DNA from: a virus
Lineage: Duplodnaviria; Caudoviricetes
Reading direction: 5' to 3' (one strand)
DNA length: 28,851 nucleotides
Virus record (IMG/VR): IMGVR_UViG_3300027804_000176
Location: 1-28,851 of that record
Position numbers and translations under genes: made by a program. Positions 1,024 through 13,287 of this stretch are shown in pieces (position 1 is the first letter of the stretch; each line of letters begins with the position of its first letter). The notes below the pieces were generated by a model. It was given only the letters and a program-made list of their open reading frames with translations. It did not search any database and had not been told where the DNA came from.

Positions 1024-3335
1024 TAGTATCCTTCCGTTTCAAATGTTTCAACTGTTTTTAAGTACTCGCCGGCCGATGTGTTAAATCGTAGCCCCAAGTA
1101 GATCGGGGTACGACTACCTTCGGACCGGCTTTCGCCTGCCTCGATGCGTTTCTCCTGTGTCGCGGCCAAGAACCTGCGCTTGAATGACATCTCCGAGCCA
1201 GGTGGCAGGCTACGTTTAAGCGCCCACCTCTTCCAACACAGGAATACGTCGTCCTTTTTAACCTGTGACACTGGGTCAAACACAAACGTGTCCTCCACGA
1301 ATGAGTTCAGTGGGTTGCCCAACTGCTCCATCAACAGCAACAACTGACGCCCCGACTGTGGTTGTATGAAGTGCCCGCCACGTGCCAGTCTGCGATCAAG
1401 TCCGGCCATCGCCCAGTTAAAGATACCGGCCAACTCGCCGGATAGCTTATTAAACAGGTCGGTGTCCTCGTTGTCGTAGAATGACTTGGTCATGCGTAGC
1501 ACCAACATACGGCCGGTGAGCGCATTACTGTTCTCGGTTAATTGCAACGCCTCGTTCGAGTATACGATGATACGCGTTGGCAGATAGCCCGACCATGCCT
1601 CCTTATTTTTGCGATTAACGGTGACAGTATCACCACCCACAATACGCAACAACTGGCTAACGACAGCGCTACGATTACGCTCAGGTGCACGAGCGTCAGT
1701 AAATGAGGCAAGGGGTTTTCCAAGCCATGGTTGTAAGCCAAATGTATCACAGAGCTCCTCCAATTGTGGTGCGACGGTGTTGTGCTGTCCGAATAACGAC
1801 ACGAGCACCTTGTTGATCGTGCCCTTACCGCTACGTCGTGGACCAATTACGTTAAAAAACTTCTGCTGTCTCGTGTCTCCCGACAGAATGTAGCCGAAGA
1901 TCTCTTGCAGTGCGTCGATCGACTCTTGATCGTCTTCCCATATTGACTGTAAGAATGCGTCCCACTGTGGGCAGGTCGCGCCTTGGTCGTACTTAAATGG
2001 TAGCGAGTGCTGTGTAAAGAACCCAAGCGAGTGTGGCAGTAAGATTTTGTCCTCTAGGTGAAAGAGGCCATTCTTGACGCTGATCAACTTCGAGGCGTCG
2101 GGTTTATTTGCCTGATACTCTTCAAACCAAATCGGTGGCTTGGTGTTTGCGTGATTGGGTAAATGCACGATCGACTTAATCGCATCCATAGAGGCCGAGA
2201 CGCTCGCCGGTGACGGGTTAAACGGCACCAAGGCACCGCCCTTGGCAGGTTTCTTACACTTATCAAGGAACGCATATAACTTCGAGCGTATCGTTGCCTC
2301 CTCGATAATCTCGTAGTGCGTGCCGGCGTGTATAAAAAAGTCTTCCGCGTAGTGCACTAGCCGGTAGCCCTCCTCGCTGGAGTAGAGCGCATCGAGAAAG
2401 GTGCGTGCGTGATTCATCGCGCCCGAGTCGAGTACTATCTCGCCCCGAGCGAGCGCATCCGCCCTCTCTTTCTGATTGACCTTAAAGATGATGCTCCGTA
2501 GAGTCGCGCCACCACTCTTGAACGTGCGCCACTTACTCTCACAGCTATTCATGCCGGTTGATGCGTACTTGCCGGATTGCGAGCTCCAACGATCCCACAG
2601 TTCACAGGCCTCGACGTCACCGCCAAACTGGTGGAAGAGCGCAAATCCCACGCCCATCCAGTCTGTGTACCCGCAGTCGGGGTCGAGCTTGGATAGTAGC
2701 TCCATCTCGACTCGGTGCAGGTCGTAGCCCTCTACCGGTGGCACGTAGTCCGCGAACGCGTCGCCTGTCACGTGCAGTGCACGCTCGGGTATGAACGCCG
2801 AGAGATCCTGCGCCTCGGTTGGTATCGTACCGCCTAGGTAGTGGCCGGTGACTGTGAAGAACCTACCCTGTGGGTAGATCTCTAGCCCTTGGCTGTGGTC
2901 GACGTGGGCGTGCGCTAGATCGGCGCGGGTAAATATCTTAATGCCAGTGCCCGATGGTGAGACCTCGTGGTATCCAAGTAGCTCGTCGGATATATGTTGC
3001 AGTGCAGCATTTGTGAAACGCGAGGTGGTATGGTCAAAGCAGTCGTCTAAGTCCACGCCGATTAGGTTGTCGGTTTGGGTGAATACAAACCCGATACCCG
3101 CAAACTTCTCGGGGTCTTCCTCGTAGGCGTGTTGGACTGACGGGAAGTCTGTCCACGTCGTCGGGTTGGTTGACGAGGCGGGTTGTCCACTTACCTGCGT
3201 TGGCAGTTTAGACCACCGCTTGTTGCCCTCGTCGCCTACCTCGACAAGGCGCCACAGTACCCACCTAGGGATTCGTTTCAATTCCAGTGGTATCGTGGCA
3301 AATTGCACGGGTAAACAAATTGGTTTATCTGTCAT
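1023..3335 (-). CDS. Primase-polymerase fused to PriCT-2 and a D5/P4-type SF3 helicase
   Basis: N-terminal prim-pol motifs (KLP...ASSTNPTTW, GIGF, GVDLD, EVSPSGTG, EIY...RFFTVTG); PriCT-2-like YTDWMGVGFAL...WDRWS; Walker A GPRRSGKGT; VGGDTVTVNRKNK. Confidence 0.9.
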   Translation of the reverse strand: MTDKPICLPVQFATIPLELKRIPRWVLWRLVEVGDEGNKRWSKLPTQVSGQPASSTNPTTWTDFPSVQHAYEEDPEKFAGIGFVFTQTDNLIGVDLDDCFDHTTSRFTNAALQHISDELLGYHEVSPSGTGIKIFTRADLAHAHVDHSQGLEIYPQGRFFTVTGHYLGGTIPTEAQDLSAFIPERALHVTGDAFADYVPPVEGYDLHRVEMELLSKLDPDCGYTDWMGVGFALFHQFGGDVEACELWDRWSSQSGKYASTGMNSCESKWRTFKSGGATLRSIIFKVNQKERADALARGEIVLDSGAMNHARTFLDALYSSEEGYRLVHYAEDFFIHAGTHYEIIEEATIRSKLYAFLDKCKKPAKGGALVPFNPSPASVSASMDAIKSIVHLPNHANTKPPIWFEEYQANKPDASKLISVKNGLFHLEDKILLPHSLGFFTQHSLPFKYDQGATCPQWDAFLQSIWEDDQESIDALQEIFGYILSGDTRQQKFFNVIGPRRSGKGTINKVLVSLFGQHNTVAPQLEELCDTFGLQPWLGKPLASFTDARAPERNRSAVVSQLLRIVGGDTVTVNRKNKEAWSGYLPTRIIVYSNEALQLTENSNALTGRMLVLRMTKSFYDNEDTDLFNKLSGELAGIFNWAMAGLDRRLARGGHFIQPQSGRQLLLLMEQLGNPLNSFVEDTFVFDPVSQVKKDDVFLCWKRWALKRSLPPGSEMSFKRRFLAATQEKRIEAGESRSEGSRTPIYLGLRFNTSAGEYLKTVETFETEGY

Positions 3336-3365: not shown

Positions 3366-3382
3366 ATTTTTGGGTGCTGATA

Positions 3383-3579
3383 TTTCACAATGTGAAATGA
3401 GTTGCTGTAAGTCCTTGATGTTTGACGGGGATGCGGGGGTTGCGGGGGTTAATTCCAGTTTACCCTCTATCTTTATTTTTCTTTTTTAAAAAAATATAAA
3501 AATAGTAAAAGTACCCCCGCAAGTACCGCGAGCCCGTCGAAGATCAATGACTTAGCTCGTTTCGTTTCACATTGTGAAA
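3383..3579. repeat. Origin-like quasi-palindromic element, copy 1
   Basis: TTTCACAwTGTGAAA palindromes at both ends (3383-3397, 3565-3579); IHF-like ATCAAnnnnTTA sites (3408-3420, 3542-3554); GCGGGGGT/ACCCCCGC inverted repeats around a 62-bp AT-rich core (3451-3512). Confidence 0.8.
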
Positions 3580-3725
3580 AATAGGGCATAGATTACGTGT
3601 CCGATGAGGTATAAAAACAGGGCTAGCACCAGTAAATTCTCCCTGCGCCTCATTTTGTCAATTTTGGGGTCGTACTCGATGAACTTACGCCGTGACTCCT
3701 TGCCGTAGTCGTCCCCCCGTTTCAT
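3567..3725 (-). CDS. 52-aa protein with a C-terminal hydrophobic (probable transmembrane) segment
   Basis: Read by hand: MKRGDDYGKESRR...LLVLALFLYLIGHVIYALFFTM; ATGA overlap with the upstream gene. Confidence 0.6.
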   Translation of the reverse strand: MKRGDDYGKESRRKFIEYDPKIDKMRRRENLLVLALFLYLIGHVIYALFFTM

Positions 3726-3916: not shown

Positions 3917-4260
3917 TTTTCCTCCTTGATCTTGTGTACAATGTCTGCCACCTTGTTGCCACGCTCTTCCCAACTGTCCTGCGTGCCGTAGTCGCCCCTG
4001 CTCATGCGCATGCGCTCCTTGTCTCTAAACTCGGGCTCAACTGCTAGCCAGTTTGAGAATGCCTCCTTGTACTCGAGCCACTCGTCGTTCTGTACGAATA
4101 GGGGGTGGTTCATGCCTGCGACGTCCACGCACGCCGAGTAGTCGGATAGTGGCACCCAACTATAATTTTTGTTTGGCTTGACCGCACCCAGTCCGACTCG
4201 GTCGCGTGCCTTGATAAAGCGTGCGTATGCCTTCTGTTGTATTTCGTTTAGTTCAATCAT
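3913..4260 (-). CDS. Hypothetical protein, translationally coupled to the sigma factor
   Basis: 115-aa ORF overlapping the sigma stop by 8 nt. Confidence 0.75.
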   Translation of the reverse strand: MIELNEIQQKAYARFIKARDRVGLGAVKPNKNYSWVPLSDYSACVDVAGMNHPLFVQNDEWLEYKEAFSNWLAVEPEFRDKERMRMSRGDYGTQDSWEERGNKVADIVHKIKEEK

Positions 4261-4825
4261 CTAAGTGCTCCTCGGTAAACTTCTCTTGGTTAATGTGGTC
4301 AAGTGAGACTGGCTCACGTGCGATGTATCCCTGCAACTGGTGCACCTTGCTCTCTGTCACGCCCATGAGTGTGGCTATCTCGTGCGTCTTGGGTTTGCGT
4401 CCCAGTACTTGGGATAGCGATCGCTCGGTGTAGTTCAACTTCTTTACCTGCTCCATGATGTTAATTGGTAGCCGTATGATGTTTGCCGTGTTGTCTAGGT
4501 CACGCCGTACGCCCTTCTCAATAAACGTTTTGGCGTAGGTGGCAAAGCGCGCGTTGTTCTTAGGCACCCACCGGCGACCTGCCGTAAACAGTGCCTCGTT
4601 ACCCATCGCGACTATGTCCTCCACTGGCACCTTGCCGTGGTTCCACGCTGTCATCTTACGGACGACGTAGACCACAAAGCGCAGGTTGTGCTTGATCAAC
4701 TTCTCTAGCGCACGCTCGTCGCCTGCCTGAATCTTTTTGGCGAGCTCGTGCTCTTCCTCAACTGTCAGTGGCTCGATGCCGTACAGTGACTTGAGGTAGT
4801 CGCTCAGTATGTCATTTTCTTTCAT
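4253..4825 (-). CDS. Phage sigma70-family (RpoD/RpoS-like) factor with regions 1.2, 2 and 3 but no region 4
   Basis: YL...PLTVEEEHELAKKIQAGDERALEKLIKHNLRFVV (1.2/2.1); DIVAMGN...RFATYA...IRLP (2.2-2.4); LSQVLGRKPKTHEIA...VSLD (3); stop follows shortly after. Confidence 0.9.
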   Translation of the reverse strand: MKENDILSDYLKSLYGIEPLTVEEEHELAKKIQAGDERALEKLIKHNLRFVVYVVRKMTAWNHGKVPVEDIVAMGNEALFTAGRRWVPKNNARFATYAKTFIEKGVRRDLDNTANIIRLPINIMEQVKKLNYTERSLSQVLGRKPKTHEIATLMGVTESKVHQLQGYIAREPVSLDHINQEKFTEEHLDD

Positions 4826-5469: not shown

Positions 5470-5498
5470 ATTATACAGACCTTTTTATTTCTTTGCAA
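5470..5498 (-). promoter_or_regulatory. Host sigma70-type early promoter
   Basis: TTGCAA-N17-TATAAT on the minus strand. Confidence 0.75.
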
Positions 5499-5691
5499 AG
5501 TATATTTCGACGTTCTTAGAGTCGGCGTTTATATACCCGCCAAACCCCTGCTCGACCATGTAGTCGTCCGCCTCTTCCTCGGTGGCAAACTCCCGAGTGT
5601 CGCGCACTGCGTGGATCAGCGCCACTGGATAGTAATCGTCGCCCTTCACAAAGTCGCCAAACTCCATGTCGCCAAAGTAATAGAATGCCAT
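5485..5691 (-). CDS. Small acidic early protein
   Basis: ORF track; AGGAG SD. Confidence 0.7.
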   Translation of the reverse strand: MAFYYFGDMEFGDFVKGDDYYPVALIHAVRDTREFATEEEADDYMVEQGFGGYINADSKNVEIYFAKK

Positions 5692-6362: not shown

Positions 6363-6523
6363 TCTGTAATCTCCTCGTCGTCAAATTCAAAGTTAATGGT
6401 GCGACTGCAACACGTGCACCGCTCTACATATATAAAGCCATTGTTGCTAACTGCCTCCGTCCTCACCCCATCGTAGGGGCAGGTAAATGGTTGGTCGCTA
6501 TCTGCTATAAAAATGTCGGTCAT
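6359..6523 (-). CDS. 54-aa possible zinc-ribbon protein
   Basis: Read by hand: ...FTCPYDG...RCTCC...; overlaps both neighbours by 4 nt. Confidence 0.65.
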   Translation of the reverse strand: MTDIFIADSDQPFTCPYDGVRTEAVSNNGFIYVERCTCCSRTINFEFDDEEITE

Positions 6524-6789
6524 TCGTATACTCCCAGTTCGCCTGCGTTAATCCACTCTGCGTAGAGTCCGTATTTATGTAACGTGTTGGTGATCAGTGG
6601 GTTGACGCCAAACTCCCAATCTGATCCGATCGTGTGCCCGTCGTAATAGTCCGCCCACAATGTGTCACCATACTTAGGGTCGAAATTATGCTCGGCGCTG
6701 ATCTGAAAGTTTTTAATGTCATAGCGCTCGTATACTGGTGCGTTGATCTTTTTGAGTGCGTTAAATGCTAGTCTGTGTTTGCGTGTCAT
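6520..6789 (-). CDS. Early hypothetical protein (WADYY...GLYAEWIN motif)
   Basis: ORF track; GAGGAGG SD. Confidence 0.75.
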   Translation of the reverse strand: MTRKHRLAFNALKKINAPVYERYDIKNFQISAEHNFDPKYGDTLWADYYDGHTIGSDWEFGVNPLITNTLHKYGLYAEWINAGELGVYE

Positions 6790-6932
6790 TCTGTTTCCTC
6801 CTCATCTTTAACGTATTCGTTTTCTAGTTCCTGTAAATACTCGTCAATGTATTCAATGTACGGAAAATCTGTGCGAACTTCGCTAGTCCCGTCGCTCCAG
6901 TGGATTAATAATTCGTGGCTGACAACTTTCAT
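6786..6932 (-). CDS. 48-aa acidic early protein
   Basis: Read by hand: MKVVSHELLIHWSDGTSE...; AGGAGG SD; ATGA overlaps. Confidence 0.65.
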   Translation of the reverse strand: MKVVSHELLIHWSDGTSEVRTDFPYIEYIDEYLQELENEYVKDEEETE

Positions 6933-7195
6933 ACTGCCTCCTTTGTTGGGTACTCCATCTTATTAATTACATACTCCATCATGTCGATGGCGAGCTCACG
7001 CTTGATCTGCTCTTCCATGTTGGTGGCGCTAAAGCCACCCGACCATGACGACTGATTAGAACGTGCTATGCCCTGCAAATACCTGAGAGCACGCACTGGG
7101 TCTTCAATGTCATTAATCACGTTGAAGAGCTCCTCCTGATAGTCGTGGTAGAACTTCTTTGCTAGCTCACGCACGCCGAATTGTAAGTTTGCCAT
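6929..7195 (-). CDS. Early hypothetical protein
   Basis: ORF track; GGAGG SD. Confidence 0.75.
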   Translation of the reverse strand: MANLQFGVRELAKKFYHDYQEELFNVINDIEDPVRALRYLQGIARSNQSSWSGGFSATNMEEQIKRELAIDMMEYVINKMEYPTKEAV

Positions 7196-7196
7196 A

Positions 7197-7460
7197 TTAC
7201 ACCTCCCAAAATTGAATTGTTGGATCGAGTTTCTGTAACTGCTCAGCGACTCGGATTAAATTATTATACCTGCGATTGACCTCAGAGCGTGAGAGCTCGC
7301 CGTCCATGGTTAGGTTCTCGGGGCTCAGCTCGTTGTCAATGCGCCGTGCTAGGCGCTGACGATCCTCTGCGCTGTCTAAGCTCAGTGGGCGCGCGTTAAC
7401 GCGATTAAAGAGACCATCCCAGTCATTTTGACGTTTGATATATGCGTGTAGTGCTTTCAT
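7197..7460 (-). CDS. Early hypothetical protein (LSPENLTMDGE motif)
   Basis: ORF track; ATGA overlap. Confidence 0.75.
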   Translation of the reverse strand: MKALHAYIKRQNDWDGLFNRVNARPLSLDSAEDRQRLARRIDNELSPENLTMDGELSRSEVNRRYNNLIRVAEQLQKLDPTIQFWEV

Positions 7461-7654
7461 TTTGTTAACCCCTCTATAAATTGTTTTGCCTCTGCCTCAG
7501 TGTCGAACGAACGGCTGACACTGCTAGACCATCCGCCGTGATCTGCCATCACGATAAACTTATCGAGACGATAGCCGATCCTAGTAATCCGGTACGTTGG
7601 ATTTTCGGCGCGTGGTTGGTTCCAAATCTTAGCGCAATCTTTATCGTAGCTCAT
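7457..7654 (-). CDS. Early hypothetical protein
   Basis: ORF track 7457..7678, start moved to ATG 7654 behind AGGAGA. Confidence 0.7.
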   Translation of the reverse strand: MSYDKDCAKIWNQPRAENPTYRITRIGYRLDKFIVMADHGGWSSSVSRSFDTEAEAKQFIEGLTK

Positions 7655-7716
7655 ATTATCTCCTGTTGATGTGATCATTGTACTGGGTCAGTGGCTCATA
7701 GAACGAGCCACTGATT

Positions 7717-8097
7717 TTATTTTACCTGAAATGGTTTGTCGTAGTCGCCGATATTGACGTGGTAATAGTACGCCGTGTCAAAGTAGTCGACCATCGCGTC
7801 ACTGCGGTCGTAGTATCCGGCGCTTTGCATTGCCTCCATGACCTTAGCCAATACGTCGCGTGTCTTGCCATCGTAATGGTCTTGGAACCAGTAAGGGTTG
7901 ACCTGCGCGTGATCCTGTTGGAACGCGCTCAGCGCCTGCTTACGATCCGCGAGCATATTAAATGGCGCGCTCTTGATCGTGCACGTGATGCTCATGTGAT
8001 TTTGTACCCGCAGGCTAAACTTAACGCCCAGTGGCTTGAGTACCTTGTCGAGGTTTGCCTTGATTACTGCCTTTTTGTCTTGGTTCATGTATGCCAT
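7717..8097 (-). CDS. Early protein resembling large-polyvalent-protein-associated domain (LPD29-like) proteins
   Basis: KFSLR...VNPY...DRSDAMVDYFD..YY pattern, recognised from memory and not searched. Confidence 0.6.
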   Translation of the reverse strand: MAYMNQDKKAVIKANLDKVLKPLGVKFSLRVQNHMSITCTIKSAPFNMLADRKQALSAFQQDHAQVNPYWFQDHYDGKTRDVLAKVMEAMQSAGYYDRSDAMVDYFDTAYYYHVNIGDYDKPFQVK

Positions 8098-8112
8098 GGT
8101 GATATTCTCCTG

Positions 8113-8511
8113 TTATTTAGCCCTAAAACACGCCTGCACGATCGAGCGTGGTAAACCTGCCTCGGTGTTGCCGTTGTCGTGGTAGACGCCGTCAATCAGC
8201 GCCACGGCGTGTCCGCTCTTGATCACGATAAAGTTACCCTTGGGGTTGTGCTTGGCAAACGTTGCCAGTGTGCACCGGTTGCCCCGACTGTATCGCTCGA
8301 GCTTGGCGTCTTTGTTGGCGCTGAGTATTTGGATTGCCTTGTCGGTTTGGGCGCGCATCATGCCACGGCGTGGCTTGCGCCCTGCCTTGGCACATACCTC
8401 GTGCACCTCGGGATAGGCGCGGTTGAATGCGAGCGATAGCGCCCGAACTACGCAGTCTCGGGACTCTGCCTCGATTGTGCGTGGGTTGTTGCAGATGTAT
8501 TGAAAGTTCAT
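8113..8511 (-). CDS. Early protein with DCVVRA...GHAVA..DG Cys/His motif (possible peptidase-like fold)
   Basis: ORF track; AGGAG SD directly downstream of hammerhead 1. Confidence 0.7.
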   Translation of the reverse strand: MNFQYICNNPRTIEAESRDCVVRALSLAFNRAYPEVHEVCAKAGRKPRRGMMRAQTDKAIQILSANKDAKLERYSRGNRCTLATFAKHNPKGNFIVIKSGHAVALIDGVYHDNGNTEAGLPRSIVQACFRAK

Positions 8512-8534
8512 AGGCTCTCCTGTGTTGTGTGTGT

Positions 8535-8590
8535 GGTCTCATCAGTGCACGCCTAACGTGCAGACCATGGATTGTACCATGGTTTCGACC
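8535..8590 (-). ncRNA. Hammerhead ribozyme, type II (copy 1)
   Basis: Minus strand: GGUC-GAAA-CCAUGG(UACAAU)CCAUGG-UC^-UGCACG(UUAGG)CGUGCA-CUGAUGA-GACC. Complete core and all three stems; predicted cut between 8563 and 8562. Confidence 0.93.
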
Positions 8591-8592
8591 TG

Positions 8593-9012
8593 TTACTCGT
8601 CCGAAAATAAAACTTCTAATTTTGCGTCAATCATTTCAATCATCTTTTGCTTAAGATCGGCGAGGTATCTGACGCGATATGGTGTAGGGTCATCGTAGCC
8701 ACCATCAGCACCATTTAGGTATTGCCCAAGGCAAAAGTCTCGTAAATATGCCAATCTGTCCGCCTTGTACTTCTTTGCTACTTCAAAGGCAAATGCGTTG
8801 ATGTCATCTACTTCACTAGCTAGAAAGAGGTGCTCGTCTTGCCCGATGTAAATTTGATGCTTGGTCATCGTGCCGTTACTGGCATGGGAGGCAGTGCCTA
8901 CCTTTTTGCCCCAACTTTGAATGGTTAGCTTTTTGACCATCACCTTGCTGAACATTTCGTCCCATTGAACTATTGACCAAACTACGTCGCCTTTTTTGAA
9001 TTGCTTTGCCAT
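8593..9012 (-). CDS. Early hypothetical protein, flanked by hammerheads on both sides
   Basis: 139-aa ORF; AGGAG SD. Confidence 0.8.
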   Translation of the reverse strand: MAKQFKKGDVVWSIVQWDEMFSKVMVKKLTIQSWGKKVGTASHASNGTMTKHQIYIGQDEHLFLASEVDDINAFAFEVAKKYKADRLAYLRDFCLGQYLNGADGGYDDPTPYRVRYLADLKQKMIEMIDAKLEVLFSDE

Positions 9013-9033
9013 GGTGTAATCTCCTATTTAATT

Positions 9034-9086
9034 GGTCATCATCAGTCAGCGCCTAACGCTGAGACCGGATCGCTCCGGTTTCGACC
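9034..9086 (-). ncRNA. Hammerhead ribozyme, type II (copy 2)
   Basis: GGUC-GAAA-CCGGA(GCGA)UCCGG-UC^-UCAGCG(UUAGG)CGCUGA-CUGAUGA-U-GACC. One extra U after A9; predicted cut between 9063 and 9062. Confidence 0.9.
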
Positions 9087-9088
9087 TG

Positions 9089-9283
9089 TTAGCCCTCAAT
9101 TTTGATGGCTAGGATGCGCAACTGCTTGCGCTTTTCTTCGAGCTTGGCGATGTCGAGCTTGGCGAACTCAGAGTCCATGCCGTAGAGCTCTGAGAGCTCG
9201 GTGTTGATTTTGTACTCTTGATCCCAAATACCACGCATTAAAGTGTAGCGCTCGTCCCTGCTCAGTGTAATTGTAAAGTCCAT
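9089..9283 (-). CDS. Early hypothetical protein, flanked by hammerheads
   Basis: ORF track 9089..9310, start moved to ATG 9283 behind GGAGG. Confidence 0.7.
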   Translation of the reverse strand: MDFTITLSRDERYTLMRGIWDQEYKINTELSELYGMDSEFAKLDIAKLEEKRKQLRILAIKIEG

Positions 9284-9301
9284 AAAGCCTCCGTGTTGGT
9301 T

Positions 9302-9354
9302 GGTCATCATCAGTCAGCGCCTAACGCTGAGACCGGATCGCTCCGGTTTCGACC
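9302..9354 (-). ncRNA. Hammerhead ribozyme, type II (copy 3)
   Basis: Identical to copy 2 (9300-9356 = 9032-9088); predicted cut between 9331 and 9330. Confidence 0.9.
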
Positions 9355-9357
9355 TGA

Positions 9358-9552
9358 TTAAAAGGGAATGGCCATTGAGTGGCGATAAAACAAATCGCAG
9401 GCGTGGGCGCCTTGATTTGTAGCTAAGTACTGCGCATACTCTTCGGCGTTGGCCTGCTCTTCTTCGGCCAGTACAGCATCACTCTCGCCACCATAATGCC
9501 GGCAGGCTTGAGCGTAGGATTCGAATTGGTTGCCGTTGATGTCTTGGTACAT
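9358..9552 (-). CDS. First gene of the early operon, small acidic protein
   Basis: ORF track; AGGAGA SD. Confidence 0.75.
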   Translation of the reverse strand: MYQDINGNQFESYAQACRHYGGESDAVLAEEEQANAEEYAQYLATNQGAHACDLFYRHSMAIPF

Positions 9553-9729
9553 ATGATCTCCTATTGGTTAGTACTGCCTCGAGCGCCCTATTGCTAAGGC
9601 GCTCTGAGCATTACTATCTGTTAGCATACGCTGTGTTGGATAACAGCACCGGTTCTGCCGGCTCCCCCTTATAGATCGCGGTTGGGTTTGCGTTTGAGTG
9701 GATTAGCCACTGCACTTCCGATACCCTCT

Positions 9730-9759
9730 ATTGTACAGACCTTTTGGATTAAATGTAAA
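9730..9759 (-). promoter_or_regulatory. Host sigma70-type major early promoter
   Basis: TTTACA-N18-TACAAT; shares AAAAGGTCTG-TAyAAT with the promoter at 5470-5498. Confidence 0.7.
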
Positions 9760-9778
9760 TAGAATACCTGACTAAATT

Positions 9779-9803
9779 GTGGGGGATTGTGGGATACTGT
9801 GGG
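9779..9803 (+). promoter_or_regulatory. MraZ-box-like triple direct repeat
   Basis: GTGGG at 9779, 9789 and 9799, exact 10-bp period. Confidence 0.6.
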
Positions 9804-9997
9804 TTGGCAAATTGCCTAACATCTCGCCCACCCTAGCGCCCAGCCCTCGCGCCCGCAAAGCCTTTGTGGAGGCACCCCGAGTCCACCATGGCACGATCGC
9901 AGACCACTTAATACCTAACCATCAGAAAGTACGATCGTGGCGTGGCGCCCCTTTAAAACGCGTCCAATCCGTCAACTAGGGGAAACCCTAACAGCCA

Positions 9998-10159
9998 GCT
10001 AAGTTAGTTGGCACTTACTAACTTAGCACTCGGGCAATGAGAGTGCTGATAATGGGGACAGAGTCGGCGCTCGGCCATGTTAGTTAGTACTCACTAACAT
10101 ACTGGCTACTTGGCAGGGGGGCGCGGTGCCTCGATGTTAGTAAGCGCTCACTAACATCG
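9998..10159. repeat. Three palindromic operator-like sites AwGTTAGT-N8-ACTAACwT
   Basis: 10001-10024, 10077-10100, 10134-10157. Confidence 0.8.
10023..10049. promoter_or_regulatory. CIRCE element (HrcA operator)
   Basis: TTAGCACTC-GGGCAATGA-GAGTGCTGA, 17/18 match to TTAGCACTC-N9-GAGTGCTAA with the correct spacer. Confidence 0.8.
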
Positions 10160-10173
10160 GCGCGCTCGAGCTG

Positions 10174-10270
10174 TGCACCAATCTGGTGCACGTGCACCAA
10201 GGCGGTGAATTTGTGCACCATTTTGGTGCATGGGGGGCTTTTTCATGATGCGATGCACCAATTTGGGTCC
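10174..10270. promoter_or_regulatory. Cluster of NtrC-type boxes
   Basis: Perfect TGCACCA-N3-TGGTGCA at 10174-10190 and 10214-10230; imperfect at 10193-10209; half-site at 10254. Confidence 0.75.
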
Positions 10271-10362
10271 CGTGGCGGGGCGGCGGCCCGGGGGCCCCAC
10301 AGACCCCAAGCTCGTTCCATTCCCCACAAAAACCGACTTTCTAAAATTTTTTTTGTAAAATA

Positions 10363-10520
10363 TTTCACAATGTGAAACGGAATGCGCTAAGTCCTTGATG
10401 TTCGACGGGGATGCGGGGGTTGCGGGGGTTACTTTATTATTTTTATTATTTTTAAAAAATAAAAAATAAAGATAGAGGGAAACCTGGAATATACCCCCGC
10501 AAGTGCCGCAAGTGCCGCGC
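10363..10520. repeat. Origin-like element, copy 2 (core inverted relative to copy 1)
   Basis: 10363-10430 is nearly identical to 3383-3450; the 62-bp core 10431-10492 matches the reverse complement of 3451-3512. Confidence 0.8.
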
Positions 10521-10591: not shown

Positions 10592-10932
10592 TGAACGAAT
10601 ATGTTTATCAGATCCAGGGTGCCCTAGAAGATTCCAATGGAAGACTTAGGGGGTTCCGTGTCTTAGTCTGTGATCTGAACTACTTTGACTCTGCCGACGC
10701 GCCAGTTGAAATATTGGACAAAGAGACGGCTAGGTACATCGAGTTTCGTTTAAAGGTCTGCGAGCACCTGGACATTAACCGGCTGCCCGTAGAAATCCAA
10801 AACAAAATTAGGACGCCGTTAGGGCGTTGGTTGGACCTGTGGGTCCTAGATAATTTTTATGGCCATACTAGCAAATCAAAAAGTCCTGACCCTGGACTAC
10901 TGGAAACCGGCAAACAAAATCCAGCCGGGTGA
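10591..10932 (+). CDS. Hypothetical protein, first gene of the late arm
   Basis: 113-aa ORF with no SD, directly behind the promoter motif. Confidence 0.7.
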   Translation: MNEYVYQIQGALEDSNGRLRGFRVLVCDLNYFDSADAPVEILDKETARYIEFRLKVCEHLDINRLPVEIQNKIRTPLGRWLDLWVLDNFYGHTSKSKSPDPGLLETGKQNPAG

Positions 10933-11851
10933 TTACCTGTTTGACCGGAACGGTAAGCCGGTGCGGGTAAAGTTGGTACAGGAATACTTCTCAGACGACT
11001 GCTACGAGGTCATGTTAAATGACTACCTGACAATCTCTGGCGACAAGCGCCTAGAATTTTTAGTGGAAAACTTTAAATATAGGGACAGAGTCATACAATA
11101 CAAGGGATACCACCCCTTTAGGCGGCCATTAAAGCCGATGAATGTGGAGATGTTGCTAGATAGCGACCTGAAAGACGAAACAAATTGTAAGATCTACTCG
11201 ATTCCTACCACAAAACCGATTGAGCTACCCCACCAGACACTACCAGTCCCGCCGTTTGTCTTTGGATTTTGGTTTATAAACCGCAAACCTAGCGGATTTT
11301 TTACGACAACCCCGTCGACACAGGAAGAAGTGGAGCGCCAGCTCAAAGATTTTGGGTATAAAATCAAAATTCGCAAGACAATACACAACGGCTGGCGCCA
11401 ATTTACCATATCGCCGACCATAGAGTCACAGTTGGCCCCCGGTATCCCAACAAAAATACCGGCAAACTACCTGCTGGCGGACAAAGAGCAGCGAATTGAG
11501 CTGCTGCGTGGCATATTATTTGCAAAACCGCGCCAATATTCGCCGCGTAGGGACCTGTTTAGGTTCTCTAGCACACATTACGGCACGGCCTTGGCAATTC
11601 AGGGCCTGGTTGAGTCGCTGGGTGGCAAAACTAACCTCGCGTTTACAGAAAAAAATAGTACCTACACACTAACCTTTAAAACTAGGTTGAAACTGGTACC
11701 TAATCAGGTATCTAAGCCGATAAAAATACACCAAGCGCGTAGGTATATTGAAAAAATTACAAAGATCCAGCCACAGACCTGTGTTCACATCGAGACAGAC
11801 GGGCCGGATAACAGCTATCTCGTAGGAGAGGGTTTTATTTCATGTCGTTAA
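10859..11851 (+). CDS. Free-standing degenerate intein-like protein (Hint plus inactive LAGLIDADG), no exteins
   Basis: Hint N-part (KVLT...IQPGDYLFDRNGKPVRV...CYEV); LAGLIDADG-like blocks (PPFVFGFW, IPANYLLADKEQRIELLRGI, LVESLGG); Hint C-part (RYIEKI...CVHIETD...SYLVGEGFISCR-stop). Confidence 0.8.
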   Translation: MAILANQKVLTLDYWKPANKIQPGDYLFDRNGKPVRVKLVQEYFSDDCYEVMLNDYLTISGDKRLEFLVENFKYRDRVIQYKGYHPFRRPLKPMNVEMLLDSDLKDETNCKIYSIPTTKPIELPHQTLPVPPFVFGFWFINRKPSGFFTTTPSTQEEVERQLKDFGYKIKIRKTIHNGWRQFTISPTIESQLAPGIPTKIPANYLLADKEQRIELLRGILFAKPRQYSPRRDLFRFSSTHYGTALAIQGLVESLGGKTNLAFTEKNSTYTLTFKTRLKLVPNQVSKPIKIHQARRYIEKITKIQPQTCVHIETDGPDNSYLVGEGFISCR

Positions 11852-13287
11852 CACCAAAACAGGAACTTGAATTAAAGAAGTTCGCACAAGCACGCACGCA
11901 CTGGCCTAAGGACCAGCTCGAGGCCGCCATTTGGCAGGTCAAGTGGCACCTACAGGCACTGCCGCACCAACGGGAGCCAGACGATGGCGAATATGACACG
12001 TTTCTTATGCTTGCCGGCCGAGGGTCGGGTAAGACGCACACTGCTAGCCACTGGATTGGTATCCGCGCTTGGGTTTATGACAACACCCGCTGGCTCGTCA
12101 CCGCTCCCACCTCAAACGATATACGTGCAACTTGTTTCGAGGGGGACTCTGGACTTCTCAATATCATTCCCCCGTCACTTATTCGAGACTACAACAAGTC
12201 CCTGTTTGAAATCACCCTTACAAATGGATCTCTTATACAGGGGATTCCGGCCTCAGAGCCCGAGCGCTACCGAGGTAAGCAATATCACGGCGCCTGGTTT
12301 GACGAGCTGTGTGCATTTGATTACATCGACGATGCCTACGATGGCGTACAGTTTACGCTCCGCTTACGGGACCCACGCATCCGTCGAGTGCAGCAGATTA
12401 TTACCACCACACCCAAGCCAAAAGAATTAATTGTAGACCTAAACGAGGGTAAAGTAGGCGGCGACGTGTACGTGTCAAACGCCTCGTCTTATGACAACAG
12501 AGCCAACCTCTCAGAGACGTTCTTCAAACAGCTTGAGACTTACGACGGCACTGACATTGGCCGCCAAGAGATCTATGGCGAGATCCTTGACCCGGAGCAG
12601 TCCGGCATCATCAAGCGCAAACAATTTAAGCTCTGGCCGGCCAATAAGCCTACCCCGACACTGGAGTATGTCATTGCGTCGTATGATCCGGCGACTTCTG
12701 AGAAGACAATGAACGACCCGACCGCCTGCACCATCTGGGGCGTGTTTGAGCAGCAAGACGCTGGCACGGCAATTATTTTATTGGACGCCTGGGACGAGCA
12801 CCTGTCCTACCCGGAGCTACGTAGGAAGGTAATCAACGACTTTAAAGAAGTTGTATACGGCGCCGATAATGACTTTGGCAAGGGCCGAAAGGCGGACCTG
12901 ATCCTGATGGAAGACAAGTCGGCGGGTATCTCGCTGATCCAAGAGCTCCAGGGCGCCGGCGTCCCGGTCCGTGGATACAACCCCGGCCGCGCCGATAAGG
13001 TACAACGATTAAACATTGTAGCACCCCTGGTGTCTAAGGGCAAGGTCTGGATACCAGAGGAACCACAACGCAAGGGAGAATATGCAGACTGGGCAAAACG
13101 TTTTCTGCGTCAAGTATGTTCATTTCCAGAGGCTGGCGGACACGACGACTACGTCGACTCACTCTCGCAAGCGCTGCGCGTTTTACGTGATTCTGGATGG
13201 ATCCAACTCGACCCGCTACCAGCTCGAGACTATAGTTACGTGGACGACGACATGAGCAAGCGATTTGTGAACCCGTACGCCCAGTAG
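11842..13287 (+). CDS. terL: Terminase large subunit
   Basis: Walker A AGRGSGKT, Walker B AWFDE, motif C TTTP; RNase H-like nuclease motifs DPA...D, EDKSAG, FP...HDDYVDSLSQAL. Confidence 0.95.
   Translation: MSLTPKQELELKKFAQARTHWPKDQLEAAIWQVKWHLQALPHQREPDDGEYDTFLMLAGRGSGKTHTASHWIGIRAWVYDNTRWLVTAPTSNDIRATCFEGDSGLLNIIPPSLIRDYNKSLFEITLTNGSLIQGIPASEPERYRGKQYHGAWFDELCAFDYIDDAYDGVQFTLRLRDPRIRRVQQIITTTPKPKELIVDLNEGKVGGDVYVSNASSYDNRANLSETFFKQLETYDGTDIGRQEIYGEILDPEQSGIIKRKQFKLWPANKPTPTLEYVIASYDPATSEKTMNDPTACTIWGVFEQQDAGTAIILLDAWDEHLSYPELRRKVINDFKEVVYGADNDFGKGRKADLILMEDKSAGISLIQELQGAGVPVRGYNPGRADKVQRLNIVAPLVSKGKVWIPEEPQRKGEYADWAKRFLRQVCSFPEAGGHDDYVDSLSQALRVLRDSGWIQLDPLPARDYSYVDDDMSKRFVNPYAQ

Follow-up and report, generated by a model that had tools for sequence, protein, structure and literature searches.

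Type II hammerhead motifs at the first three gene junctions of a tailed-phage operon and their retention near the promoter in relatives

The minus strand of a partial tailed-phage genome carries three type II hammerhead motifs, one at each of the first three gene junctions of a leftward operon. Judged from its sequence, the feature is real and well conserved; it is of the hammerhead class in type II order and has a clustered arrangement already known from phages. The reading that we consider reasonably probable is that the three motifs self-cleave the transcript and that the hairpin-protected ends slow the decay of the released messages. Cleavage by these three copies is very probable and processing in infected cells is probable, and stabilisation as the purpose of cleavage is favoured only slightly. 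Self-processing is likely because the core is intact, the stems covary across the family, the elements are intergenic and on the sense strand, and similar arrays have published activity.

The three elements and the operon that carries them

The window, meaning the whole stretch of DNA analysed, is a single contig of 28,851 nt (IMGVR_UViG_3300027804_000176). Terminase, portal, major head and tail fibre genes lie on the plus strand from 10591, and the minus strand below 9552 carries small genes without assigned function, a sigma-factor gene and a primase. Two adjacent plus-strand ORFs of 330 and 481 aa (10859–13287) both match terminase large-subunit profiles. The closest named terminase, at 42% identity, belongs to Caulobacter phages, and none of the 43 ORFs scanned on this partial contig matched an integrase. 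The stretch or parts of it are present in the runs of 12 studies, mostly recorded as freshwater metagenomes. Contigs from the runs of other studies contain the same gene-to-ribozyme joins with 0–3 differences, so an assembly artefact is unlikely; joints that skip between ribozyme repeats were left out of this comparison because their sides are short (18–30 nt) and possibly come from other phages. The parts of the operon are as follows.

9730..9759, minus strand: sigma70-type promoter-like site (TTTACA, 18 nt, TACAAT), the likely start of the leftward operon
9569..9616, minus strand: conserved, imperfect leader hairpin just before the Shine-Dalgarno sequence (SD) of gene 1
9358..9552, minus strand: gene 1, 64 aa, without PHROGs/Pfam match, with homologues in loci L014 and L005
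9302..9355, minus strand: hammerhead A (type II), with an extra U following A9 and a predicted cut at 9331/9330
9089..9283, minus strand: gene 2, 64 aa, SD-led ATG at 9283, without PHROGs/Pfam match
9034..9087, minus strand: hammerhead B (type II), with an extra U following A9 and a predicted cut at 9063/9062
8593..9012, minus strand: gene 3, 139 aa, without PHROGs/Pfam name
8535..8591, minus strand: type II hammerhead C, canonical core, predicted cut 8563/8562
8113..8511, minus strand: gene 4, 132 aa, phrog_3754 (unknown function), predicted to head the remaining long transcript

A descriptor scan of both strands in three circular permutations placed all three elements on the minus strand in type II order, and no type I, II or III match was found in 200 dinucleotide-preserving shuffles of the whole window; the central claim of an earlier note on this DNA, three type II hammerheads at the first three gene junctions, is thereby confirmed. 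Each element consists of the stem II 5' arm GGUC (beginning at 9354, 9086 and 8590), GAAA, stem III, GUC, stem I with its loop, CUGAUGA, and the stem II 3' arm GACC. CUGAUGA, GAAA and the GUC triplet are present in all three copies, and folding predicted three helices around the core, with loops closing stems I and III and stem II open, as type II order demands. Stem I has 6 bp and the loop UUAGG throughout, and stem III extends 5, 5 and 6 bp past A15.1–U16.1 in the copies at 9354, 9086 and 8590. Position C17 falls at 9331, 9063 and 8563, and the predicted 3' products begin at 9330, 9062 and 8562, in agreement with the ends given in the earlier note. The compensatory changes in stems I and III that it described between the copies are present. 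Its statement that the core is constant does not hold, as the copies at 9354 and 9086, which are identical across 57 nt, carry an extra U between A9 and G10.1 that the third copy lacks. A conserved A (9355 in hammerhead A) lies directly 5' of stem II.

The elements begin 3, 2 and 2 nt behind the UAA stops of genes 1, 2 and 3, within the 2–3 nt noted previously. The spacer that follows had been called A/C-rich, which does not apply to the copy at 9086, where it is A/U-rich. The gene 2 start proposed by the ORF caller (9310) falls within the ribozyme core, and the SD-led start is 9283. Gene 2 with both flanking ribozymes has 91% identity in locus L321. A search with gene 3 gave one partial relative; there is also a weak lead from gene 3 to phage ProQ-C-like clusters (scores < 0.9). 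Gene 4 (8113–8511, minus strand) contains Cys and His motifs, and the Atlas links it weakly to Peptidase_C39, an assignment carried by 15% of one cluster's members.

The promoter-like site has 10 of 12 consensus matches, which is weak evidence by itself, as the scan found 10 such sites against 8.2 expected, and recurs with a varying spacer in 6 of 20 mapped related loci (two near-identical). From this site and the small genes without assigned function we infer that the operon is early. A second promoter-like site on the minus strand (5470–5499) has its 3' half in common with the 9730–9759 site and is followed by no hammerhead. The phage also encodes a sigma70-family protein of 190 aa (4253–4825, minus strand).

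A covariance model of the subfamily recovered exactly these three elements in the window at 67–72 bits, the next match scoring 8.5 bits; because its training set included a relative's copy with an identical core, the match tests for extra copies and is not independent proof. Neither the model nor the descriptor scan found a fourth or degenerate copy in the window. A search of Rfam, which the earlier note had suggested as a check, returned no match for the window at E up to 1 and no hammerhead match for 8400–9900 at E up to 10, nor any hammerhead at gathering score in 20 related loci that included the published element of Burkholderia phage Bcep176. This null reflects the library, since the published Bcep176 hammerhead was missed too. 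The elements are outside the pseudoknot-type II consensus and outside any Rfam model tested.

Conservation and position across viruses

The subfamily was surveyed with a pattern in which the core and stem II were fixed, with no constraint on the 17 nt of stem I or on the flanks. The pattern matched 124 loci in 11 of the 64 parts of the viral collection, giving an estimate of about 720 stretches, and a slightly stricter pattern found about 150 in prokaryotic genomes. The viral loci counted here and below include related phages, so the counts do not represent independent events. That a subfamily common in viruses is missed by Rfam and lacks a pseudoknot signal is new here, and a new model would improve annotation, since the subfamily is common yet invisible to Rfam. 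Many of the matches in the genome collection (L175–L254) are in Gastranaerophilales/Melainabacteria, often paired about 360 nt apart. The part covered of one contig (L031 and L032) has nine distinct hammerheads, eight of type II and one of type III, in about 3.8 kb, and most of them precede a small gene.

Although stem I was unconstrained, its six pairs form in 141–142 of the 142 different elements compared from viruses. The pattern also prescribed neither the base before stem II nor the first base of loop I, and yet the former is A and the latter U in 141 of the 142 each. An extra core base occurs in 30 of these elements and is always U, and the fourth base of loop I is a pyrimidine in 91, i.e. 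it is not fixed. Among the 48 elements with a 14-nt stem III region, which formed the covariation set, 99.8% of 480 cells pair and two-sided changes occur at all 10 free pairs; none of 500 shuffles reached this score and slid controls pair at 26–48%. The covariation of stems I and III thus exceeds both controls. Stem II was set by the pattern, and variant pairs of it occur in neighbouring copies.

The pseudoknot described for type II elements by Perreault et al. appears to be absent, as pairing between loop I and the tails showed no excess over permutation: pairing of 4 or more bp with the 3' tail occurred in 7.1% of 141 elements against 8.1% when permuted, and pairing with the 5' tail in 11.3% against 10.8%. 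The tails of the window ribozymes contain no complement of UUAGG. Two candidate interactions, pairing of the UAA stop with the loop UUA as a 5' pseudoknot and a pseudoknot with the 3' tail, were ruled out by the same lack of excess. The conserved loop I U and the A before stem II match in position the known reverse-Hoogsteen contact in which a 5' U of loop 1 pairs with a 3' A of loop 2 (PMC2632901); the invariance of both bases gives no covariation signal for a tertiary contact. As in that motif, loop I begins with U and an A occupies the position that the 3' A has in loop II; unlike it, stem II is open here, so the A is supplied by the 5' flank and in some relatives belongs to the stop codon.

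The genetic context of the subfamily was compared in the 98 elements with enough flank. An SD and start codon lie within 60 nt downstream of 83 of them, against 3 of 98 on the opposite strand, an upstream stop lies within −1 to +4 nt of 67, and 6 are within a long sense ORF.

Retention was assessed in relatives chosen by their leader hairpin with ribozymes ignored. This hairpin, the base of which is invariant, was found in 57 viral loci, of which 41 were left after removal of duplicates and of loci with < 1 kb downstream. One to four type II copies lie within 1.5 kb in 39 of the 41, none of them antisense. The other two have no copy within 1.5 kb and no covariance-model match either. A single copy within 1.5 kb is found in 16 of the 41. 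Junction 1 carries a ribozyme in 37 of 46 loci with a complete first gene, and one of the nine misses is a truncated copy. The 56 gene 1 proteins belong to 22 families, and 19 of these families are followed by a ribozyme in at least one locus, and the proteins encoded downstream of ribozymes comprise 216 distinct sequences in 169 clusters. Across 20 mapped loci, the same gene family has a preceding ribozyme in some relatives and none in others. Position, not gene identity, therefore predicts the ribozyme, since 39 of 41 relatives keep a copy while gene 1 spans 22 families; retention tied to promoter-proximal position, measured across relatives, is new here. A Pfam match was obtained for only 12 of 123 ribozyme-adjacent proteins from other loci (these represent most of the 169 clusters) and one of the 12 is ArdA, so an anti-defence role is not supported.

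Predicted processing and competing explanations

Cuts after C9331, C9063 and C8563 would release three short single-gene messages, for gene 1 with the leader, gene 2 and gene 3, of about 390, 268 and 500 nt respectively, and leave one long downstream message. Owing to the type II order, the first base of the stem I hairpin would be the 5' end of each downstream piece and carry a 5'-OH, with a 30–34-nt spacer bearing the SD behind the hairpin, and the stem III hairpin with a 2',3'-cyclic phosphate would form the end of each upstream piece, an end chemistry established for the hammerhead class (PMC6765202). The predicted 3' products have leaders of 47–51 nt that terminate in a GGAG SD and ATG. 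In the active fold, the A 5' of stem II would contact the U that opens loop I, and a pseudoknot would not be used. From 8511, gene 4 and the genes that follow would remain on the long RNA with no further hammerhead. Self-processing of the whole polycistron into single-gene mRNAs, as proposed in the earlier note, is thus likely as a prediction for genes 1–3 and does not extend to the genes from 8511 onward. The accompanying statement that no host nuclease is needed stands for the three cuts and is less secure for the leader, whose hairpin may be a host RNase III site. One RNA run contains a small share of the stretch and, over the span 7400–10200, gave two contigs, one of them identical over 8123–8344; these are evidence neither way, since they cover no ribozyme and carry neither strand nor ends.

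Hairpin ends without a single-stranded overhang resist decay, and the ends predicted for both products are hairpins of this kind, with no unpaired 5' extension. A substrate with a 5'-OH is a poor one for RNase E, and ends made by hammerheads are apparently not phosphorylated in E. coli; direct entry of RNase E is a major route that does not depend on the 5' end (PMC4191395). Given a host with RNase E, resistance to 5'-monophosphate-dependent decay is plausible, and 5'-OH hairpin ends would likely slow decay. In a host with RNase J the effect of 5'-OH ends could be the opposite. Relief of SD occlusion by cleavage was considered and is unsupported, as predicted SD accessibility hardly changes between the uncut and cut RNA (0.46 to 0.41, 0.67 to 0.71 and 0.49 to 0.52).

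The same cuts could serve to shorten or uncouple expression, by creating decay entry points or by breaking coupling and polarity, such that the first genes are expressed in a short independent pulse. Cleavage by the glmS ribozyme in Bacillus leaves a 5'-OH that makes the downstream RNA a target of RNase J1 (PMC3328962), and a 2019 review leaves differing stabilities or translation efficiencies open (PMC6765202). The ribozyme junctions measure 74–81 nt and 6 of the 10 following mapped junctions measure −4 to +1 nt, so that coupling is absent at exactly the ribozyme junctions. Each downstream gene nevertheless keeps its own GGAG SD, and hairpins at both product ends speak against decay entry points; we regard shortening or uncoupling as unlikely, if deserving of some weight. 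A bolder and unlikely proposal is that promoter-proximal junctions in this freshwater phage clade are obligatory cutting slots for any gene, with cleavage gated by the ribosome and coupled to translation. The slots would be filled interchangeably by a type II hammerhead, a type III hammerhead or an RNase III-like hairpin, and a terminating ribosome would gate folding and so couple cleavage to translation of the preceding gene. Gating is proposed because the contact A and the stem II 5' arm lie 0–4 nt behind the upstream stop or inside it; the proposal is held at a low probability because a compact phage genome also gives tight spacing between stop and ribozyme.

A further explanation is that the ribozyme repeats act mainly as DNA, as homologous boundaries of 55–70 bp for swapping SD-bearing promoter-proximal cassettes, with cleavage secondary. 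Unrelated genes replace gene 2 between the same two ribozymes in L014 and L005, with similarity to L014 ending at 9299 and resuming at 9088, and L321 matches exactly from ribozyme to ribozyme (9032–9356, 91%). Copies within a genome are also more alike (0.83, 37 pairs) than copies from different genomes (0.79, 824 pairs; permutation p = 0.002; 42 ribozymes from 17 loci), though this excess is small and partly a matter of lineage. Breakpoints that are exact to the gene occur at ribozyme-free genes too (8113–8511, 6520–6799, 6929–7196 and 7193–7461), and recombination therefore looks like a side effect. Moreover, recombination requires identity and not compensatory changes around an invariant catalytic core, and 16 of the 41 relatives have just one copy within 1.5 kb. 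On this evidence a primary role as DNA is quite unlikely. We give still less credence to religation of the 5'-OH and cyclic-phosphate ends, by the ribozyme or by a host RtcB-type ligase, into circular or spliced single-gene RNAs. Ends of this chemistry are ligatable, and a piece bounded by two ribozymes would regain a complete hammerhead once circularised. The last ribozyme of an array and the single-copy genomes cannot form such a two-ribozyme circle. Perreault et al., who raised the idea, found by their account neither circles nor spliced products (PMC3088659). That the elements are catalytically intact and useless passengers, copied along with the adjacent SD, is very unlikely: a copy number of 0 to 4 that is not tied to gene identity would suit it, and against it stand retention in 39 of 41 relatives, a position that is always sense and intergenic, strict stem covariation, and the lack of a mobility gene near the ribozymes. 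Cleavage with stabilisation of the released messages remains the reading that we prefer.

Known systems and the leader hairpin

Phage hammerheads had been described in the earlier note as isolated cases. Perreault et al. (2011) had already reported that individual prophage genes are often flanked by multiple hammerheads and that the identity of these genes varies, and had suggested that processing of long phage transcripts may yield single-gene mRNAs (PMC3088659). Their examples include the Agrobacterium tumefaciens triple with ardA and the arrays of Clostridium scindens and Azorhizobium caulinodans; in vitro they observed cleavage in three prophage arrays, and in E. coli in one, and 4 of 18 tested consensus hammerheads failed to cleave (PMC3088659). 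In the window, too, several hammerheads lie close together and flank single genes, and the flanked genes are not constant. As in the published arrays, same-strand hammerheads stand between small phage genes of varying identity for which a single-gene-mRNA role has been proposed, and the related locus L001 has an ArdA gene right after a ribozyme, like the Agrobacterium tumefaciens array. The window differs in coming from a metagenomic freshwater phage, in having all three elements of type II with no pseudoknot signal, and in the extra U of two copies, which the type II alignment of 2011 may already hold. Arrangement and interpretation have therefore been in print since 2011, and the locus is a clean further example and not a new system.

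The Bcep176 hammerhead, weakly matched in a blastn search of phage records (E 0.9) and among those tested by Perreault et al., scores 41.4 bits on the subfamily model and by this score and its sequence is a member of the same compact subfamily. It resembles the window copies in the A before GGUC, a 6-bp stem I closed by G–C, a 5-nt loop I beginning with U and a 4-bp stem II. A6C, a longer stem III and a location between convergent genes are found in Bcep176 only, and the window copies have the consensus A6. Despite A6C, Bcep176 has low but detectable activity (kobs < 0.1 per min; PMC3088659). An extra base at the same core position is known from the CChMVd (+) viroid hammerhead, where an extra U between A9 and G10.1 makes trans cleavage 3–4-fold faster according to a review (PMC3705267). 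In contrast to CChMVd, the extra base is always U in the present subfamily, and loop I has 5 nt with a fourth base that is not fixed.

Two further comparisons concern function. The early polycistron of T7 is cut between genes by RNase III into mono- and dicistronic messages, as is proposed here for the hammerheads; there a host protein leaves a 5'-phosphate and a 3'-OH, whereas hammerheads act without protein and leave a 5'-OH and a cyclic phosphate (PMC4858673). RiboJ, like the window elements, is a hammerhead cut upstream of an SD that gives a uniform 5' end bearing a hairpin; it is engineered, placed after a promoter and supplied with an added 23-nt hairpin (PMC7536230), while the window elements are natural and intergenic and, unlike RiboJ, would also shape the 3' end of the upstream message. 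Engineered hammerhead insulators mostly reach cleavage efficiencies of 0.84–0.94 in E. coli (PMC7536230). The subfamily members, which measure 53–57 nt and provide a hairpin at the 5' end and an A-rich stretch ahead of the SD, are candidate natural insulators.

The purpose of phage hammerheads is given as still unknown in a 2019 review (PMC6765202) and a 2023 paper (PMC10085705), and searches of mostly open-access literature gave no study on what phage hammerhead arrays serve for in vivo. The locus, where a single promoter-like site is followed by three consensus ribozymes within 820 bp, is a compact test case for this purpose, and the clade offers natural variation in copy number (0–4) and flanking genes.

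The leader hairpin is predicted to form 19 pairs, interrupted by one mismatch and a 2x2 internal loop. The folding z of the leader is −3.75, and none of 200 shuffles was equally stable. In an alignment of 17 sequences, two-sided changes occur in 8 of the 19 pairs, all in the apical helix. It has no Rfam match. RNase III sites are imperfect helices of about two turns, and the leader helix is about two turns long, with apical covariation; it may be an RNase III-type processing site. In L023 and L042 a type III hammerhead occupies the slot of the leader hairpin, which hints that the hairpin is a cutting signal.

Four related loci (L004, L025, L045 and L007) contain, between leader anchor and hairpin, an additional structured segment that is well over 100 nt long, is absent from the window and has no Rfam gathering match in L004, L025 and L045. 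Its position in two of them is given below.

L004, about 2510–2690, plus strand: structured insert
L025, about 2505–2670, plus strand: structured insert

In the window, the junction after a 126-aa gene carries a hairpin of 13 bp (7685–7717), which may terminate opposite-strand transcription or be a further processing site. Three copies of a 70–150-nt element, direct and inverted, lie at the two ends of the leftward operon (3380–3582 and 10360–10510).
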